Source: a virus (lineage: Duplodnaviria > Caudoviricetes). Taken from it: a DNA stretch of 32,599 nt. The notes beneath the pieces are model-generated. The model did no database searches, was not told where the DNA came from, and saw only the letters and a program-made list of their open reading frames with translations. Location of the stretch: the IMG/VR virus record IMGVR_UViG_3300009506_000151, positions 1-32,599 of that record, one strand, 5' to 3'. Position 1 is the first letter of the stretch, and each line of letters opens with the position of its first letter. Position numbers and translations under genes: made by a program. Positions 1-32,138 of the stretch are shown piece after piece.

Positions 1-165
1 ATGACTGATCTTGAGATAAGTCGGCCCGCCCTGCCGAAACGTCACGAGGCCAAGAACCTGCTTAAACATGTAATGCCGCTTCCGGCGAGCGCCCTGGAAG
101 TGGAACACCTTCAGCACATCGCCCACCATAATCTCGCGACCATTCTTGTCGTAGACATCGGCCAT
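1..165 (-). CDS. small phage protein, YopX-like N-terminus (runs off window)
   Basis: Not in ORF track. AGAGGAGG RBS, then ATG at 165: MADVYDKNGREIMVGDVLKVFHF... The DKNGxEIxxGD motif is typical of YopX-like phage proteins. Confidence 0.7.
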   Translation of the reverse strand, partial: MADVYDKNGREIMVGDVLKVFHFQGARRKRHYMFKQVLGLVTFRQGGPTYLKISH

Positions 166-180
166 GACTGCCCTCCTCTT

Positions 181-423
181 TTACGTTTCAACTGCCGCGA
201 CTTCTTCCTGCGATGCTTCCCGCCAGCCGATAGCCTCGTCCATCTCAATGTCATCCCGGTGGGCACCGATAGGACGCCAGCAATCATCAACGCCTTGGTC
301 GCGCAGCCAGCCACAATCAAGAAACTCTGCGATCACGTACCGGCCATCGCGCGAGCGCACCCATATTGGTTTGTTGCGCGGTGCCGTATCCATCGGCTCA
401 AGATGGGGAAGCATCAAATCCAT
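181..423 (-). CDS. DUF551-like small phage protein
   Basis: EPMDTAPRNKPIWV resembles the 'PIETAPKDG' motif. The ATG at 423 overlaps the upstream stop (TGATG). Confidence 0.65.
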   Translation of the reverse strand: MDLMLPHLEPMDTAPRNKPIWVRSRDGRYVIAEFLDCGWLRDQGVDDCWRPIGAHRDDIEMDEAIGWREASQEEVAAVET

Positions 424-578
424 CAGAGACATGTCTTGTTCCAATTGAAGTATGCGGCCTGACTGTTGCAAGACAGCACGCGAACAGAGCCGACAGCCTT
501 ACCGTCACGCGCAATCGTTACGACATACTCGTGCGGCTTGTCCGCCTGTTGGACGCGTTGAATGCTGTATTTGCTCAC
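423..578 (-). CDS. hypothetical protein (51 aa)
   Basis: AGGAG RBS, then GTG at 578: MSKYSIQRVQQADKPHEYVV... Confidence 0.6.
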   Translation of the reverse strand: MSKYSIQRVQQADKPHEYVVTIARDGKAVGSVRVLSCNSQAAYFNWNKTCL

Positions 579-589
579 AGATGACACTC

Positions 590-745
590 CTATTCTGCGT
601 TTGTCTTCGACCTGCGCGGGCAGCGTATCGTCGTGTACCTGCGCCACCACCCAGCGTAGATGTAGTCAAGCAACCGCTTCCGCGCAGGAATGCGCCTCAA
701 CTTCCTGGCCAGCTTCCGAGAGAGGCCTTTTCGCTTGAGCGTCAT
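590..745 (-). CDS. small basic hypothetical protein (51 aa)
   Basis: Not in ORF track. GGAGG RBS, ATG at 745: MTLKRKGLSRKLARKLRRIPARKRLLDYIYAGWWRRY...; TAG at 590-592. Confidence 0.6.
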   Translation of the reverse strand: MTLKRKGLSRKLARKLRRIPARKRLLDYIYAGWWRRYTTIRCPRRSKTNAE

Positions 746-755
746 GGCGCCTCCA

Positions 756-905
756 TCATTTCGTTTTCGTGGCCAGCGCGCGGATCACGGCAGCTACCTT
801 CTCCGCTTCTTTGCGCGTTAAATTGATGGGCAATTGCAGCCTGACCGTTACTTTCTCCCGCAAGGGAATAGATGTGATGCCGTCGTGCATCTGGACGTTT
901 GGCAT
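756..905 (-). CDS. hypothetical protein (49 aa)
   Basis: GAGGAG RBS, ATG at 905: MPNVQMHDGITSIPLREKVTVRLQLPINLTRKEAEKVAAVIRALA. Confidence 0.7.
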   Translation of the reverse strand: MPNVQMHDGITSIPLREKVTVRLQLPINLTRKEAEKVAAVIRALATKTK

Positions 906-915
906 AAGACACTCC

Positions 916-1110
916 TCATTTTGCTTTGGCGTAGCGCTTGGCCGCGCCAACAATCCATTCAGTCAGACACCACGCGGCCAATGGATCTTCGTCCGCCTTC
1001 CATCGCTCGTGACGTGGCGAGCCGTGTGTGCCGCGCACCACCTCCGTTCCCATTCCCAGGCGGGCGATTTGCTGCGCCTCGCGCCAGAGCTTCGCTTCAC
1101 GTGGCGACAC
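916..1110 (-). CDS. hypothetical protein (64 aa)
   Basis: GGAG RBS before the GTG start; fills the gap between two junction motifs. Confidence 0.6.
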   Translation of the reverse strand: MSPREAKLWREAQQIARLGMGTEVVRGTHGSPRHERWKADEDPLAAWCLTEWIVGAAKRYAKAK

Positions 1111-1122
1111 GATCAGGCTCCA

Positions 1123-1653
1123 TCATTTCGTTCGCGGGCGACCGTCAGGGACGCCCCTCGCACCGTACCGGCGAAAGCAGGTCGCCGGGCTCATTCCAAT
1201 CAGCTTCGCCGCCTCTTGGCGGGTGTGCGCCGCGTCGCGCCAGATGCGGATTGCCTCATCGCGGCTGATCTTGGCGCGCACTTTCCGATGCTTCGCCTTC
1301 TTACCATACCGCTGTGCATCCTCGCGCTTGTGGCCGCGTCGGCGCATGGCGTCGAAGATCATATCCGCCACGTCTTCCGCGTCGTCATCGCGCCGGTTTT
1401 TCAGCACTTCGACAATCACCGCGCGTCTGTCACGAACTGCCCTCATCCACTTCTCTAGCGCGATACGCTCGCCGGCCAATCGATCAAGCGAGTAGATGCA
1501 TAACTCGTCACCCTCGCGAAGCGATCTGACAGCGTCGGCAAGCTTCTCGTTTTGACCTTCCACATAGATGATCTCGACACCGTGAGCGTGAAGCGCAGCT
1601 TCCTGTTCATCGCGAGTGCACCAACTGCTAGATCGAATATAGCCCCGTCTCAT
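1123..1653 (-). CDS. small serine recombinase (resolvase/invertase family) with C-terminal HTH
   Basis: GYIRSS matches GYARVS and keeps the catalytic Ser. LREGDELCIYSLDRLA matches LRxGDxLVVxxLDRL. C-terminal HTH RQEAAKLIGMSPATCFR. Confidence 0.85.
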   Translation of the reverse strand: MRRGYIRSSSWCTRDEQEAALHAHGVEIIYVEGQNEKLADAVRSLREGDELCIYSLDRLAGERIALEKWMRAVRDRRAVIVEVLKNRRDDDAEDVADMIFDAMRRRGHKREDAQRYGKKAKHRKVRAKISRDEAIRIWRDAAHTRQEAAKLIGMSPATCFRRYGARGVPDGRPRTK

Positions 1654-1684
1654 ATCTGGTTCAACAGCTTCCGCAACATCGCCT

Positions 1685-1714
1685 CTTGAAACCGTTTCAA
1701 GCGGGCATTATGCT
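1685..1714 (+). promoter_or_regulatory. sigma70-like promoter overlapped by a perfect 8-1-8 palindromic operator
   Basis: TTGAAA(1686)-N17-TATGCT(1709); palindrome CTTGAAAC-C-GTTTCAAG at 1685-1701. Confidence 0.65.
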
Positions 1715-1799
1715 GTTGATACAGTTTGAGGCACGGAGTCACAAGCGGCGTTGTTTCCGCTATGCTTCGCTAGATCAGAACGAATGGAAGGCCCGCACC

Positions 1800-2153
1800 A
1801 TGGACGAAGAGATAGAGAGAAGAGCGCGCGCCTATGCTGGCAATGACTTCCGAGAACGCAGGAAGGTTGTCGTAAATCCAGTTTGCTGGTGTGGTAATGA
1901 AGAGATGCCGTTGGGCGAGTTTCTTGAGTTTATAGCGATGTCAGTGCCTGAAGAATACAAGGCATCCGCTCTCGTCTCCTATGAGAGTGGTGCTTATGAC
2001 GAGGGTGACACATTCAAGGTTACGTATGAGCGCATGGAAACAGATGAAGATGTTGCCACTCGCATCAACAACGCTCTGAACTACGCACAATCATCTCTGC
2101 ACAATGATCGTGCGTTGTACGAGCAGCTAAAGAAAAAATTTGATCACAAATGA
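1800..2153 (+). CDS. hypothetical protein (117 aa)
   Basis: ATG within the repeat; MDEEIERRARAY...; lower GC than the virion genes. Confidence 0.7.
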   Translation: MDEEIERRARAYAGNDFRERRKVVVNPVCWCGNEEMPLGEFLEFIAMSVPEEYKASALVSYESGAYDEGDTFKVTYERMETDEDVATRINNALNYAQSSLHNDRALYEQLKKKFDHK

Positions 2154-2176
2154 TTTGTCCAAAAGAGGCCAGCAGG

Positions 2177-2461
2177 ATGGATTGGAGAGCTGAGCAACCA
2201 GCGGGCGAGGGAGAGCCCTACGAAGTTCGCGCTTATCTGGACGACGGACGGCCAGGATACTATGTAGCTGACAACCTGCCCATCGAGAACGCGCGTTTGA
2301 TTGCCGCCGCACCTGATCTTTACGCTGCACTCGGAGCGGTGATGTCAGAATTCGGCCCTGGCACGATGAGCCACAAAGCGTTTATGGCCGCAACGATCGC
2401 ACTCGCGAAAGCTCGTGGTGAAACGGTCGAGCCGTTCGACGAATTTGACGACCATCTTTGA
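2177..2461 (+). CDS. hypothetical phage protein with NARLIAAAP motif
   Basis: ENARLIAAAPDLYAAL is a recurrent motif in small phage proteins; ATG within the repeat. Confidence 0.75.
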   Translation: MDWRAEQPAGEGEPYEVRAYLDDGRPGYYVADNLPIENARLIAAAPDLYAALGAVMSEFGPGTMSHKAFMAATIALAKARGETVEPFDEFDDHL

Positions 2462-2481
2462 AGCAAACGAGGGCCCGCACC

Positions 2482-2658
2482 ATGGATGGAATTAACGGAT
2501 TGTACGTCGGCCAACTGTCTCAGGATGAGCTGAGGTGGTTCGAAGAAGCGGTTTCGACGGGCCGTGCATGGAGAGATTATGATGGCCCACACGGCGCACT
2601 GGGATTGGCCAAGGTAAAGTTGGCTAAGTTCATGAGGCACAAGAATGGTGCCCCCTAA
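2482..2658 (+). CDS. hypothetical protein (58 aa)
   Basis: ATG within the repeat; MDGINGLYVGQLSQDELRWF... Confidence 0.65.
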   Translation: MDGINGLYVGQLSQDELRWFEEAVSTGRAWRDYDGPHGALGLAKVKLAKFMRHKNGAP

Positions 2659-2843
2659 GCAGCCTTATCCTCATCTCCATCTCTAGGTTGCGCTAGACCC
2701 TGGATGTGAGCCTTGAGAGCTTCAATCTCTGCCTTGGCCATGACAAGTTCAGCACGGGCCTGTGCGGCCTCGTTAAGTGCGTGATTGCGCTGCTCTTGAA
2801 GAGCGTCGAGAAGGGCTTGGCCATGCGATATCTGCCTATCCAT
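2655..2843 (-). CDS. small coiled-coil protein after tail fibre (possible chaperone)
   Basis: LDALQEQRNHALNEAAQARAELVMAKAEIEALK heptads; last gene of the leftward operon. Confidence 0.65.
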   Translation of the reverse strand: MDRQISHGQALLDALQEQRNHALNEAAQARAELVMAKAEIEALKAHIQGLAQPRDGDEDKAA

Positions 2844-2852
2844 GTTATGCAC

Positions 2853-4253
2853 TTATGCTGGCGTGACTGAAGCTGATCCGTCAGCAACATACCACGCAGA
2901 TGCGGCCGTTGTTCCTGACGCAACCATCAACCTGTTGTTCGTCGCGTCCCAGACGACTTTTCCAGGGCCCTTGCCGCTCGTATTGATCGCGTTTGCAATG
3001 TCGGCAATATTTGCGGCCGTCTTGCTATCGAGATGAACCGAGTCCCACTCCGTTCCGTTCTGGCCAAGCGATAGAAGCGCATCTGTGTAGGGACGCAATG
3101 CGCTGGTGCTCAGTAGCAATTTGTATGAGCCACCAGAAGCCATAAGAAGCTGATCGGCATTGTGGTTGTAGGCAACGGCGCCTCTATAGTTGGAATCGGT
3201 ATCGCCGAATACCAGCGCACCAGTAGACGTGTTGCCAGTTAGGATGGTAATGCCGCCAGTGGCATCTGAGTCGACAACGAAATCGTCGTAGCTCGTGTCT
3301 GCCGTCGTGCCGCTCGCTGTACCTGGCGTGATAACGGCGCCGGTCGACAGAAGATCCAGCTTCTTTGTTCCAGAAAGAGACCACGCGATTGTCGCAGTCG
3401 TCGGGAAGTACATCCCACTGGCAGAGTAGTTGGCGAAATTGGGAGCGCTTGCCGTACCACCATGAGATTTTAGACTGCCATTGTCGATGAATGTCCTAAA
3501 GCCTGTTGTAATGCTGTGGTCAGATGCTCCAAGATCCTGGTCCCCTGGTTGTACTCCATACGCATCCACATAAATGTACGTGCCATTGAGCTGCGTATAG
3601 GTTCCGCTGCCGGATGCAATAACCGCAAGCGCATCACAGACGTTATCGCTTCCCTGGTAGCAGGTAAACACGTTGCCGGCCATGTAGAAGCCTTCAAGCG
3701 TCGTGCTCGCAACCGTTGTTTCAAGCGTGATAATGCCGTCGCCAGACACAGGAATGACGCTCGGTGCGACGTACTTGTTGTCTGTGATGACGATCGAGCG
3801 CCAGTTCGTCTCGGCATTATGTGTAGGAGATCCAGACGTAATGCCGGAACTGCTCAGATACCCATCATTCGTGAGGCGGATACCTGCCGTGTCCATGTCG
3901 CAATGCGTGATGATGATCTCGCGAGGGTCGCGGAAGATAGCACCATAACGCATGTTAGTGGGTGAGCCGTCCGTCAGGGCCCAGTGAAAACCTGTAATTG
4001 TCACAGATCCGATATGGAAATCGAACGGGCCTGTCCACTCGGCATAACCACCGTCAACGACGATATCTCCGCAGTAGGCGCGGATCGGCGGGCCGGTGTA
4101 GAGAGATGTGGTCGGAAGACAGAGCCAACGGCAGTTGTGGCAGATCAGACCGTTATCATCGGTATATACGCCAGAGGCATCGTGAGACGGAGAGAAAATA
4201 CCAAATAGTTGTATATCTCGACGGGACCAATTGAATTGCCCTGGGCGTGCCAT
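2853..4253 (-). CDS. tail fibre/tailspike, C-terminal part
   Basis: Beta-rich and G/S/T-rich. C-terminus GKVVWDATNNRLMVASG...WYVADGSASVTPA resembles phage tailspike ends. Confidence 0.7.
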   Translation of the reverse strand: MARPGQFNWSRRDIQLFGIFSPSHDASGVYTDDNGLICHNCRWLCLPTTSLYTGPPIRAYCGDIVVDGGYAEWTGPFDFHIGSVTITGFHWALTDGSPTNMRYGAIFRDPREIIITHCDMDTAGIRLTNDGYLSSSGITSGSPTHNAETNWRSIVITDNKYVAPSVIPVSGDGIITLETTVASTTLEGFYMAGNVFTCYQGSDNVCDALAVIASGSGTYTQLNGTYIYVDAYGVQPGDQDLGASDHSITTGFRTFIDNGSLKSHGGTASAPNFANYSASGMYFPTTATIAWSLSGTKKLDLLSTGAVITPGTASGTTADTSYDDFVVDSDATGGITILTGNTSTGALVFGDTDSNYRGAVAYNHNADQLLMASGGSYKLLLSTSALRPYTDALLSLGQNGTEWDSVHLDSKTAANIADIANAINTSGKGPGKVVWDATNNRLMVASGTTAASAWYVADGSASVTPA

Positions 4254-5467
4254 AAGAAGCTCTCAAAACGCAGATCCTGGAATGCTGATTCTGAAACGAC
4301 TGATGTCGGGCAACCCATCGTCAGCATGAAGTTACCAGTATCGTCAGAGCCGAGCCACTTCAGACCACCATTTCTGATGACAACACCCTGGTTCTTGATG
4401 CTCGCCGGAGAGCTGGTGAAACCGTTGCTGCCGCAGATGAAGGAAAGCTTCGAACTGATGCCGATCAGCTTGCCTTCGAAATCAAGCTCCTTGTGCGAAT
4501 AATTCGTATCGAACAATCGTGTAATGGCAGCGGTAACCTCAGCACTTTGGTCAACGTCTGGATCGTCACTTGTCAGGAACTGAGATATTTTGAGGCCAAT
4601 GGCCATGTCCGTGTGATCACGTTTGAGCCAGTTGCCGGCATATGTCGATGTCGACGCGTTATCCGTGATTGCAACGATCTCATCGCCTATGCCGAATGAA
4701 ACGCTATCAACTGTGCCAGCAACAGACACGAGATAGGCATAGCCAGCCTGCGCCGATCCGCTTCCAGGGAACGTGCCAGCGCTTGCATCCCATGCCCCAT
4801 ATGTGAGTCCGTCCGCGACAGCTTGTGCCGCGTCCGCGGCGTCTGACGCCGTCGCGGCGCTCGAGGCCGCTGACGTCGCGCTTGCCGCCGCAGCCGTTGC
4901 ACTGGCTGCGGCGAGCGTCACAGAACTCCCGCCATAGTTTGTGTCGCCGTAGCTCTTGGTGACAGCGTCCGTGTCTCCGGTCGGGTCGGCAAGGTTGCGC
5001 AATATCTGGCTCTCAGCATCCCAATAGTCCGTGGCGCCGGACGAATTGAGCTGCATCACGTCGCCCGTGATGCCATCGTTGACCGATCCGCCGCCAGCTT
5101 CTTCCTGAGACGCCAGCACAATCCTATCAATGGCCCACTCTACAGAGTCAGCATCGAATGCGCCGACGTTCGTCAGGTTGACGCTTGCGCGGGTTTTGAC
5201 GGTCGCGCGTTGAATGCGCAGCGTCTCGCCAGTGGCGGGCGCCGTCAGCATCGTCAGCGTGCCGGTCGATGGCGCTCCGGCGTTGTCATCCGCGCCACCG
5301 GCAACCGTGTAATGGGTGGTCAGCGTTTTCGCCGTCTCGACACCATCGGAATCGATGATGGTCGCCACGATCTCGTCGTCATCGAAAAATTGCCAAGAAA
5401 TCGCAAAAGCGGTTGTTGCGCCGTTGCCCGAGTAGGACAACACGCTGTAAGACGTGCTGATTGTCAT
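4145..5467 (-). CDS. tail fibre, N-terminal part (T7 gp17-like attachment domain)
   Basis: YSGNGATTAFAISWQF...YTV...TLTMLTAPATGETLRIQR, then NLADPTGDTDAVTKSY and an Ala/Ser-rich stalk. Confidence 0.8.
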   Translation of the reverse strand: MTISTSYSVLSYSGNGATTAFAISWQFFDDDEIVATIIDSDGVETAKTLTTHYTVAGGADDNAGAPSTGTLTMLTAPATGETLRIQRATVKTRASVNLTNVGAFDADSVEWAIDRIVLASQEEAGGGSVNDGITGDVMQLNSSGATDYWDAESQILRNLADPTGDTDAVTKSYGDTNYGGSSVTLAAASATAAAASATSAASSAATASDAADAAQAVADGLTYGAWDASAGTFPGSGSAQAGYAYLVSVAGTVDSVSFGIGDEIVAITDNASTSTYAGNWLKRDHTDMAIGLKISQFLTSDDPDVDQSAEVTAAITRLFDTNYSHKELDFEGKLIGISSKLSFICGSNGFTSSPASIKNQGVVIRNGGLKWLGSDDTGNFMLTMGCPTSVVSESAFQDLRFESFLWHAQGNSIGPVEIYNYLVFSLRLTMPLAYIPMITV

Positions 5468-7719: not shown

Positions 7720-9447
7720 TTATTTGGACTTGTCGCCTTCCTTGGCGATCTGCTTCAGCTTTTCGAAATCCTGCTCGCTCACGGCTGGCATGCCGTTCGG
7801 GCCGGGAATGACCATCGAATATTTCTCAGCTATCTTGACCAAGCTGTCATCGAACAGGACGTAGTTGTAAGTGCCTTGGCCGCTTCCGCGGGAGCCTTGG
7901 TCTAGGTAGCGAATGCCGGGGATGCCCATATTTTTAAGACGGTCAGTTGCCTGCTTATCGCGCAATGGGCCGAGACGGATAGTCTCGAACTCTTTGGCAT
8001 CTCTGCCTATCCGTACCCGTTCTACAAGTCCTGTCTGTCGCCACTTATCCTGCATGGCAGCAGGCATGTCAGCAAAGGGCCCATCTAGAGATAGGAAATC
8101 TTCAGGCTTGGCGTTTATCGTGACCTTGTAGAGACGGCCTTGCTGGATGATTGATGGATCAATTTTCTCGAATATCTGCTGTCGTTCAGCGTCCATCTTT
8201 CTCTGAAACGAAATTTCTCTCTCTGTTGCGCCGTTAGCACGCATTCGCTCAATATTGCGCTCCAATACGTTCTGCAGCGCCTTTGTCGGCGCTATGCCTT
8301 CGTTCTTTGCAAGTTGTATGGCGTCCGTATAAGTTCCAACTAGGCTGCTCCGTATACCTTCATTCTGCCAACGATCATTCATCCCTTTCGTGGCCTGAAC
8401 TACAGCGCTTTCCATTCCGCTGCGGTATTGGTCGCCCGGAACCTCTCGCCCAAATAAGCGGTATGAGCGAGCCGCATTGTCATCTCTATAAGTTCTGGCG
8501 ACCGTCGGAGACTCAGCAAAATACAGCCCATGCCCGTATGCTTGAGCGCCTTCGCCTGTGCCTATTTTGCTAATGTCGAACTTCTCAAAATCATGCGGGC
8601 TGCCATGATAAGCCGTGATGCCTGTTGGCTTTGGCTTTGGCTTTGGCTCAGGAGGTGCGCCACTGGAGGACACGTGATTCGGTGCCTTGGCACTTTTCAT
8701 CGCACGCAGCGCCGCCGCTCCGAGACTGCCCGTGATGGCACTGCCAGCGGCACCAGCGCCGCCGCGCATCATGGAATCGAAACTGACATAGCCTTTCGGT
8801 GCATTCGGATCCTGCTCGAAGCCAAGGCCCTGCCTCAACGAGCGATATGCATCAAGCAACCCCTGCGGAAGACCTATCCCCGTCTGTGTCGATCCATCCG
8901 GCATCTTGTAGTCTCCGAGCGGGACCACGCCGCCGCCTGCCATCTGGTATCCACCCTGCAGAAACAGCGGCACGAGCTGCCACAGCGGATTGTCCTGCGG
9001 AAGATTCTGGATAGCCTCGAGGATCGCCGCCGTGTCAATCTGAGGCGCCTGCTCCTGTTGCGGCTGCGCGGCCGGTGCCGGGGGCTGATATGCCTGCGCC
9101 TTCCAGAACGGCACGTCAGGCAGATCAAGAATATCCTGAAAACTTGCACCAGATGCGTGCTCTGTCTGCGCCTTCGGGTCGAACGGTTCAGGTTCCTTGA
9201 AATCCGGCAGATCGAGCAATTCGCTGTCTGACACCGACGGTCCCGGTACCGGAGGCGCTTCAGGCTGCGGCGGTGGCTCCTGGGGTGGTATCGCCATGCC
9301 GCCGACTTCCGGCGCCTGTGGCTGCGCTGCGGCCGGCATGGCGCCCGTCATGATGCCTGGAATGCCCGTACCTGTCCCCATGTCTGGAGGCGGTCCTGCG
9401 TCTGGTTTTGTCCCCTTCGTGGCAGGGGGCAGCGTTGGAATGGCCAT
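7720..9447 (-). CDS. Pro-rich protein with C-terminal ADP-ribosyltransferase-like (ART-PolyVal type) domain
   Basis: AYHGSPHDFEKFDISKIGTGEGAQAYGHGLYFAE...GRLYKVTI...GIPGIRYLDQGSR...NYVLFDD. Confidence 0.75.
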   Translation of the reverse strand: MAIPTLPPATKGTKPDAGPPPDMGTGTGIPGIMTGAMPAAAQPQAPEVGGMAIPPQEPPPQPEAPPVPGPSVSDSELLDLPDFKEPEPFDPKAQTEHASGASFQDILDLPDVPFWKAQAYQPPAPAAQPQQEQAPQIDTAAILEAIQNLPQDNPLWQLVPLFLQGGYQMAGGGVVPLGDYKMPDGSTQTGIGLPQGLLDAYRSLRQGLGFEQDPNAPKGYVSFDSMMRGGAGAAGSAITGSLGAAALRAMKSAKAPNHVSSSGAPPEPKPKPKPTGITAYHGSPHDFEKFDISKIGTGEGAQAYGHGLYFAESPTVARTYRDDNAARSYRLFGREVPGDQYRSGMESAVVQATKGMNDRWQNEGIRSSLVGTYTDAIQLAKNEGIAPTKALQNVLERNIERMRANGATEREISFQRKMDAERQQIFEKIDPSIIQQGRLYKVTINAKPEDFLSLDGPFADMPAAMQDKWRQTGLVERVRIGRDAKEFETIRLGPLRDKQATDRLKNMGIPGIRYLDQGSRGSGQGTYNYVLFDDSLVKIAEKYSMVIPGPNGMPAVSEQDFEKLKQIAKEGDKSK

Positions 9448-31360: not shown

Positions 31361-32138
31361 CGCCAACCTCCTTTAGCACCCGGTTTTTCCAGTTCCGCAT
31401 GAATGGCGTTTCCTCGATCTCCTCATTCTCGAGAAGTTCAGAGCCTGGAGCTGGTTTGCAATATCGAGGCGTGCTTGGGTCGAGCTTGAAGCCAAGGCTG
31501 GCGCTTGGAAGTCCTGCGTTCTGGCCTTCAGCCAAAGCGTTGGCGAATACGTTCACTGTCGCTTGCCGCCGGCTCTTGGCCTCGGCTACCGCCTTGGTGA
31601 AATATCCCCATCCGCTGATGGTTCGGCCCTTGGCGATCATACGCCCGCCGATGTCTCGGATTGTTGGCAGGATGTCACGCTCGAGGTCTGCCCCCTGGTC
31701 AATCCATGCCAACGGTTCTGAGAAGTTTTCGAGAGCAGCCGTTGTTCGATTGAGAGCCTTTCCGCCTGCTTCGAACATTTTTTCAGCAAGCGCAGCAGGA
31801 TTGATCTGCTCTGACTCTCCCAATGCTGTTGCTGTTGTTAGTTTGTTATTTTTTTCTTTTAGGGGGGTGTGGGGGGAACTTTCTTTTGCTGCAGTGACCG
31901 TACGGTCAGTTTTTGTGACTGAGTGGTCACTTTGTGACTGTACGGTCAGTTCCGTACGGTCACTTTTGACCGAGTGGTCACTTTGAGTGACTGTACGGTC
32001 ACTTTCTCCGAGCATCTTGATTGCCCGATAAACCGCGCTTGTGGTGCATTCTAGTTCAGCGGCAAGTTCTTTCGGGCAGGTTATCCCGCATCTCATGGCA
32101 AAGCGCACGGCATGCGCCAGAGGGGTAAGCTTGCTCAT
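31347..32138 (-). CDS. replication initiator protein (lambda O-like architecture)
   Basis: N-terminal HTH, central repetitive linker encoded by iterons, directly upstream of dnaB. Confidence 0.75.
   Translation of the reverse strand: MSKLTPLAHAVRFAMRCGITCPKELAAELECTTSAVYRAIKMLGESDRTVTQSDHSVKSDRTELTVQSQSDHSVTKTDRTVTAAKESSPHTPLKEKNNKLTTATALGESEQINPAALAEKMFEAGGKALNRTTAALENFSEPLAWIDQGADLERDILPTIRDIGGRMIAKGRTISGWGYFTKAVAEAKSRRQATVNVFANALAEGQNAGLPSASLGFKLDPSTPRYCKPAPGSELLENEEIEETPFMRNWKNRVLKEVGDARH
31828..32002. repeat. probable replication origin: six 16-bp palindromic iterons plus an A/T-rich tract
   Basis: GTGAC(C/T)G(TAC/AGT)GGTCA(C/G) at 31894, 31915, 31934, 31948, 31966 and 31987; T-rich tract at about 31830-31888. 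Confidence 0.8.

Follow-up and report, generated by a model that had tools for sequence, protein, structure and literature searches.

We analysed a 32,599-nucleotide stretch of viral DNA (IMG/VR record IMGVR_UViG_3300009506_000151; Duplodnaviria, Caudoviricetes; hereafter the window) and found that a gene for a resolvase-fold protein (1123-1653, minus strand) lies at the centre of a two-armed module of small genes, most of them preceded by a short, arm-specific core in ribosome-binding position. As judged from its sequence and that of its homologues, the module is a real, conserved and cassette-like one: its arms behave as cassette arrays, rows of single genes without promoters of their own whose content varies and whose limits stay the same, because the same layout recurs with unshared cargo, because paralogues run from GGAG to GGAG and because shared sequence blocks are bounded at the core. 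The mechanism that we favour, with a probability of about one half, is a short-homology exchange of whole genes at the ribosome-binding cores, the resolvase-fold protein being a likely regulator and not the recombinase.

Six open reading frames (ORFs) follow the central gene on the minus strand (arm A) and three divergent ones lie on the plus strand (arm B). They encode 49-117 aa, the ORF at 1-165 being truncated by the contig end, and no two of them are mutually homologous. Together with Pfam, PHROG and PDB fold matches for the central protein, this bears out the initial annotation of the DNA, which had placed a small serine recombinase gene between two divergent arrays of unrelated ORFs. A profile search for the central gene returned 1583 clusters at E ≤0.001 and 331 at E ≤1e-10; 159 proteins were used, and twelve loci came with DNA context (L001, L002 (MW202785), L051, L057 and L094-L101). 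Within the family that contains a Hyphomicrobiaceae-labelled assembly, 7 of 401 genomes carried the gene. An order-level search matched 3 of 401 genomes, two of which held ordinary resolvases without arms, and further family and genus searches gave identical loci. Scans of IMG/VR with a close family alignment found no relative, a metagenome scan found one distant relative, and a second, peptide-derived pattern gave no match. One locus was dropped for partial C-terminal matches only (L073); it holds an ORF (L073:4191-5075) with several partial matches to the C-terminal part of the family.

The layout is conserved and the cargo is not. All twelve loci carry small ORFs downstream of the central gene and divergently upstream, with some arms short or cut by contig ends, and their central proteins are ~30-56% identical to that of the window. 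Among 148 arm proteins there are only five homologous pairs. The closest relative (L094) has a central protein 56% identical to ours and keeps the control-region sequence, and it has no arm gene in common with the window. None of the nine arm proteins of the window gave a tblastn match in the twelve loci, and blastp gave one weak match to L001. Searches for relatives were blank for the arm genes at 1800-2153 and 2177-2461, as well as for a gene common to L094 and L095, whose homology is confined to the coding part. A Pfam family was recognised in 7 of 20 scanned arm proteins of the relatives, for example SLOG, Dam, Mom, DUF3850 and DUF4326. The comparison of neighbourhoods called for by the initial annotation therefore came out in its favour, with arm-specific junctions kept and cargo almost unshared in homologous loci. 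Neither of the two outcomes that it had named as speaking against its proposal, a fixed gene content and a motif equally common at unlinked starts, was seen.

Some of these loci depart from the pattern of the window. Module orientation varies, arm B facing the late operon in the window and arm A facing it in MW202785 (1-4258). L001 (1-5123) is a distant member (28% identity, no catalytic Ser) whose arm-A genes are joined by ATGA-type overlaps and whose arm-B junctions have GGAG. A typical module also occurs on a short contig of an assembly labelled Candidatus Peribacteria (L061/L101, G002:C46), which is likely a mis-binned phage contig.

We then consider what marks the junctions. The initial annotation had seen a conserved 15-16 bp motif at almost every ORF boundary, which proved too broad: exact 15-mers stand at only 2/6 arm-A and 2/3 arm-B gene starts, namely AACGAAATGATGGAG at 751-765 and 1118-1132 (minus) and GGCCCGCACCATGGA at 1790-1804 and 2472-2486 (plus). 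Of 2000 resampled sequences, one contained two or more 15-mer repeats of this kind, and chance was rejected as the source of the motifs; exact 15-mer repeats also occur in 2 of 11 other 2660-bp blocks of the same phage. The element shared by the starts is a shorter core, and it does differ between arms as had been claimed, GGAG preceding 5/6 arm-A starts and RARGGCC all three arm-B starts of the window. Across the window and 11 loci (L001, with its different junction type, was excluded), RARGGCC precedes 28/56 arm-B starts vs 5/76 arm-A and 3/75 non-arm starts, with core variants in arm B of L057 and L097. GGAG precedes 67/76 arm-A starts vs 17/75 non-arm starts. It weighs against our reading that the arm ends in all these counts were drawn by eye and that the gene caller favours GGAG, which makes the arm-A count too high. 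Junction palindromicity is no higher than in shuffles (score 5.77 vs 6.00). The arm junction motifs carry no promoter or terminator, and the three promoter-like matches and one terminator-like match found in 1-3200 are at chance level.

Both cores look like translation signals. Because the 3' end of the 16S rRNA of one genome (G111) reads GATCACCTCCTTTCT, with which both arm cores are able to pair, GGAG and AGAAAGG can both be used as parts of a Shine-Dalgarno sequence. The arm-B consensus gave 36 matches in 34 genomes when 391 genomes were searched. Only one of 30 fetched loci is an array, and that locus holds the central gene family; several of the others are single ordinary host gene starts. 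The arm-B motif is an ordinary ribosome-binding variant, and rows of it are seen, among the 30 fetched loci, only in the two-armed module. The exact arm-B 16-mer had 46 IMG/VR matches, none of them near the central gene family and none resembling a small-gene arm; it is therefore not a widespread fixed site.

The sequences around the cores carry signs of exchange. In L095, one gene is duplicated with 100% identity from its GGAG to the next GGAG, and a second, diverged paralogue pair has identical GGAG-to-GGAG limits. Junction pairs sharing at least 12 nt make up 12/438 pairs within an arm vs 5/3948 between phages. Of 14 long blocks shared between junctions of one phage, 13 extend to a single side of the core (6.3 expected; p about 1e-4), and the bias persists when one block is counted per arm (8/9 vs 3.8 expected, p about 0.005). 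In the window, a left half is common to the resolvase-fold gene and arm-A gene 2, and a right half to arm-B genes 1 and 3. Junctions two places apart have more repeats in common than expected (18 vs 11.4), and closely spaced repeats may be lost faster. No excised circles or skipping joints were seen in the material searched, the assembled contigs of one DNA run.

In the mechanism that we favour, each arm gene would be swapped whole: rare crossovers between short homologies would take place at the 4-nt core, which is GGAG for arm A and GGCC for arm B. The unit of exchange would run from the core through spacer, ORF and stop to an A-rich left half. After a crossover at the core every gene would still have a functional ribosome-binding site. 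In a tightly packed operon no other products would survive, and selection would thus retain core crossovers as the only ones after which all genes can be translated. The agent would be general machinery of the phage or the host (single-strand annealing proteins or replication slippage) and not a dedicated enzyme. The different cores would hold the arms as separate pools and avoid inverting the control region between the inverted arms. As to candidate machinery, MW202785 encodes an Erf protein, and RecT matched in three of the five genomes that bear a prophage, in one of them (G056) on the contig with the prophage.

Several observations weigh against this mechanism. ERF was found in 0 of the 5 prophage-bearing genomes. 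The 4-nt core and the 12-19-nt repeats are shorter than the pairing lengths published for Red-beta (23-27 bp) and RecA (31-34 bp; PMC3945230), so that ordinary homologous recombination is no explanation. Simple core crossovers also fail to explain the scarcity of repeats at adjacent junctions (6 vs 14.4 expected) and the identical 7-14 nt left halves found on unrelated genes. This half-junction identity leaves room for a dedicated trans-acting process or for an atypical active recombinase. Finally, among the 30 fetched loci motif arrays were seen only with the central gene family, as a dedicated system would predict.

Such a dedicated, site-specific process at the core is an alternative that we hold to be doubtful. 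It might be run, for example, by the integrase of the phage itself, encoded next to the module, by a recombinase of the host or by way of RNA, and the resolvase-fold protein would be its architectural or targeting partner. It would fit the sharpness of the junctions, since 13 of 14 long blocks are bounded within 0-2 nt of the core and no pair matches over four or more bases on both sides. The lengths of the left halves cluster around 11 nt, close to that of a recombinase half-site. In MW202785 the module is flanked by the lysis genes and, on the arm-B side, by an integrase that has a tRNA-like att sequence, and arm A ends near a tRNA or tRNA-like sequence in L051 and L094. On the other hand, the module has no conserved partner gene, core flanks are poorly conserved between phages, and other shared blocks end at the start codon instead of at the core. 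Equally doubtful to us is the bolder version of the idea, a dedicated and undescribed capture system in which a resolvase-derived protein, either by itself with a changed active site or in the role of a targeting partner, would direct the crossover at the 4-nt core, copy half-junctions onto captured genes and keep two orthogonal pools (GGAG and GGCC) growing outward from one control region.

Less probable again is that no exchange system exists, the motifs being strong ribosome-binding sites and the repeats remnants of local duplications after divergence. The fit of both cores to the anti-Shine-Dalgarno sequence, the arm-B motif at single host gene starts and the duplication in L095, a real one of tandem type, all agree with this explanation, as does arm-A gene 6 of the window, whose Rhizobium phage homologue sits in an ordinary replication operon without the motif. 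Yet duplication followed by drift predicts blocks that span the core and homologous neighbours, and the blocks are one-sided and the genes that they flank unrelated. It also leaves unexplained that most of the 12 loci keep different cores in the two arms with central proteins so far diverged.

Whether the central protein could itself perform the exchange was judged from its fold and catalytic residues. It matches Pfam Resolvase (PF00239) at 24.3 bits (cut-off 23.3) and a PHROG DNA invertase, its best PDB fold matches are gamma-delta, Tn3 and Sin resolvases, and the resolvase fold and a C-terminal DNA-binding domain are both present. The residues described as crucial in resolvases are Y6, R8, S10, D36, R68 and R71 (PMC2794168). 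The central protein has Gly at R71 and lacks both the S39-G40-R45 loop and E118/R119. All six catalytic residues occur together in 5 of the 141 family proteins with an aligned N-terminus and in none of the 12 arm loci, as compared with 5 of 6 control ordinary resolvases (L092, L093, L081, L083-L085), the sixth having Thr in place of Ser. Ser occupies the S10 column in 66 of 159 family proteins, with 20 gaps in that column, and in six of the 12 arm loci. Two loci without the catalytic serine (L099 and L100) have exact 18- and 19-nt junction repeats all the same. This resolvase-like family (331 clusters at E ≤1e-10, annotated as invertases or resolvases) is probably not catalytic. Three points weigh against this conclusion: five of the six catalytic residues are kept in the central protein (Y6, R8, S10, E at 36 and R68), and D67 as well; an Arg stands two positions past R71 in 117/159 family proteins; and R71 mutants of Tn3 resolvase are described as severely reduced, not inert (PMC2794168).

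These residues and the retained fold would suit a serine recombinase that itself adds and removes cassettes at the junctions through an atypical active site, as would the recurrence of junction 1, which lies at the gene's own 3' end, as junction 3 both in the window and in L094. We nevertheless consider this the least probable explanation, given the variable serine, the deleted loop and E118/R119, the arms whose exact repeats persist without serine, and junctions that are non-palindromic and unlike the boxes upstream of the gene, only 1/9 window junctions carrying the control-region box. The capture or shuffling platform of the initial annotation is in this way split: its cassette-like behaviour stands, with the unshared cargo and the GGAG limits of paralogues, and the serine recombinase as catalyst at recombination sites in the junctions does not.

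The preferred reading would instead make the central protein a likely regulator. Between the arms lies a divergent control region (1654-1799) with four GT(T/A)TCAA-type boxes within 65 bp, at 1658-1664 (+), 1686-1692 (-), 1694-1700 (+) and 1716-1722 (-); the whole window has 12 such boxes. The palindrome that the initial annotation had placed here was recovered as TTGAAAC-C-GTTTCAA at 1686-1700. It overlaps a sigma-70-like promoter match for arm B (1686-1714, plus strand; TTGAAA-17-TATGCT, a consensus match only), whose -35 element is the left arm of the palindrome. The box sequence is partly conserved in L094 while all cargo differs. We propose that the central protein would bind the four boxes at 1658-1722 and that it is likely a putative DNA-binding regulator of divergent promoters, rather than a recombinase, citing the conserved control region of L094, the leaderless-like starts of family genes and the T5orf172/MUG113 domain in long family members.

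As seen by eye, the family gene starts a few bases past a -10-like hexamer, and so looks leaderless, in L057, L095, L098, L099, L100 and L101. In L051, L057, L095 and L098 a palindrome is formed by back-to-back TTGAC/TGTCAA elements. The T5orf172/MUG113 domain was found in 13 of 14 long family members tested (P0010, P0016, P0022, P0026, P0027, P0044, P0048, P0053, P0059, P0097, P0120, P0137 and P0153), mostly at the C-terminus and at the N-terminus in P0053; L051:4703-5578 is probably another long member with this domain.

The features of the module can be followed outward from its centre. The degenerate small serine-recombinase gene encodes 176 aa, with a C-terminal helical DNA-binding domain in the likely regulator. 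Arm A, all on the minus strand and with intergenic gaps mostly of 9-17 nt, begins with junction 1 (1118-1132), in which AACGAAATGATGGAG comprises the last codons of the resolvase-fold gene, its stop and the GGAG core. Gene 1 (916-1110; 64 aa, GTG start) has no family, with a weak match to phrog_37895. The core and right half of junction 2 (908-916) read AGGAGTGTC, which is common to junction 4 (583-591). Gene 2 (756-905; 49 aa) ends in 11 nt identical to the end of the resolvase-fold gene, and junction 3 (751-765) is the second copy of the junction 1 sequence. Genes 3 (590-745; 51 aa) and 4 (423-578; 51 aa, GTG start) have no family, and neither has gene 5 (181-423), which encodes 80 aa from a TGATG overlap or 77 aa from a later start; the boundary between genes 4 and 5 is this plain overlap. 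Junction 6 (166-190) consists of a stop, the AAGAGGAG core region and a spacer, and leads into gene 6 (1-165), cut by the contig end and 57% identical to the Rhizobium phage gene.

Arm B, on the plus strand, opens with junction 1 (1790-1804), where GGCCCGCACCATGGA combines the GGCC core, spacer and start codon, followed by gene 1 (1800-2153; 117 aa), for which no relative was found. Junction 2 (2161-2179) is AAAAGAGGCC with spacer and start codon, and gene 2 (2177-2461; 94 aa) belongs to phrog_1273, of unknown function. Junction 3 (2472-2486) repeats the sequence of junction 1, and gene 3 (2482-2658; 58 aa) is convergent with the end of the late (tail) operon.

The window is an entire 32.6-kb virus record, from a podophage with a T7-type tail. 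Its minus strand carries terminase, portal, capsid and tail genes, those for internal virion proteins and for lysis, and one for a DnaB helicase; the two-armed module lies beyond the late operon, near one end of the contig, which breaks off inside arm A. The carrier is likely a temperate podophage, and we infer an alphaproteobacterial host from the genomes in which relatives of the central gene occur, those of the family with the Hyphomicrobiaceae-labelled assembly. The only sequencing run listed as containing the sequence is a DNA run from marine sediment, possibly its source; no RNA run was listed. Elsewhere in the window, the product of 7720-9447 is predicted to be virion-associated and matches the ART-PolyVal ADP-ribosyltransferase family in part, at a score under the Pfam cut-off. 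The tail-fibre region (2853-5467) consists of two overlapping ORFs (2853-4253 and 4145-5467) with a 13-bp repeat at 3139 and 4249, and a contig of run X1 diverges from the window before 4204, a hint of a tail variant. Short direct and inverted repeats cluster at 31893-32005 inside the gene preceding that for DnaB; they are iteron-like and likely a replication origin.

Phages have many tiny accessory genes, and by what route these are acquired and rearranged is an old question, on which short-homology and illegitimate models compete. This module offers defined substrates: its two arrays differ in their 4-nt cores, its exact repeats measure 12-19 nt, and the limits of its genes are placed to the base. 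It also flags a large family that is annotated as invertase or resolvase yet is probably non-catalytic. Should a dedicated enzyme or partner be at work on the cores, this would amount to a new chemistry of gene capture. A full-text search, judged by titles and the starts of abstracts and with most subscription journals outside its coverage, found no published description of the two-armed architecture.

Among known systems, the central protein resembles the small serine recombinases (gamma-delta/Tn3 resolvase, Sin and Gin; PF00239) in fold and domain order. Small serine recombinases bind repeated boxes in a divergent promoter region beside their own gene, and by analogy the central protein may do so too. 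The protein differs from the active ones in the absence of R71, the loop and E118/R119 and in the varying nucleophile of its family. Membership among active resolvases or invertases was rejected, the six-residue set being incomplete and the junctions lacking inverted-repeat crossover sites. Integrons combine a tyrosine integrase and attC inverted-repeat sites with promoterless single-gene cassettes in a row behind a shared promoter. The module is like them in its rows of promoterless single-gene units beside a recombinase-like gene and a shared promoter, and unlike them in having two divergent arrays and junctions that are the ribosome-binding sites themselves. It was not classed as an integron: no tyrosine recombinase was found among 40 scanned proteins of the window, an incomplete contig, nor any attC-type inverted repeat.

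In boundary-sequence and Rad52-like models, junctions at gene boundaries arise from short homology or illegitimate events and are kept by selection (PMC3029335, PMC3945230), and one described insertion consists of a gene with a 3' end in common with the gene just upstream of it (PMC3029335). Unlike the boundary-sequence model as presented there, our module repeats its boundary along whole arrays, with a 4-nt core, and is tied to one gene family. The PeSL cassettes of the hyperplastic regions of T4-type phages are units of a promoter and a stem-loop terminator for which mini-circles have been shown (PMC2839356). As in that description, expression signals double as exchange points of small non-essential genes with no dedicated recombinase, and the difference is that the module's junctions are 10-30-nt translation signals without promoter or hairpin; with no promoter plus stem-loop terminator at arm junctions, a PeSL assignment by the published definition (PMC2839356) was rejected. 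The start-associated sequences (SAS) of Cluster K mycobacteriophages have a 13-bp consensus, GGGATAGGAGCCC, with or without 17-bp inverted repeats, are spread over a genome half and have a proposed role in translation (PMC3203893). By that account, the asymmetric repeat in ribosome-binding position before non-structural genes is present in the module, and the single 13-bp consensus is absent. Both systems place short non-palindromic repeats of AGGAG type just before the starts of non-structural genes, sometimes including the upstream stop (PMC3203893), and the module differs from the SAS as described in its two arm-specific 4-nt cores, its compact divergent layout, its phage-specific halves and its signs of crossover.

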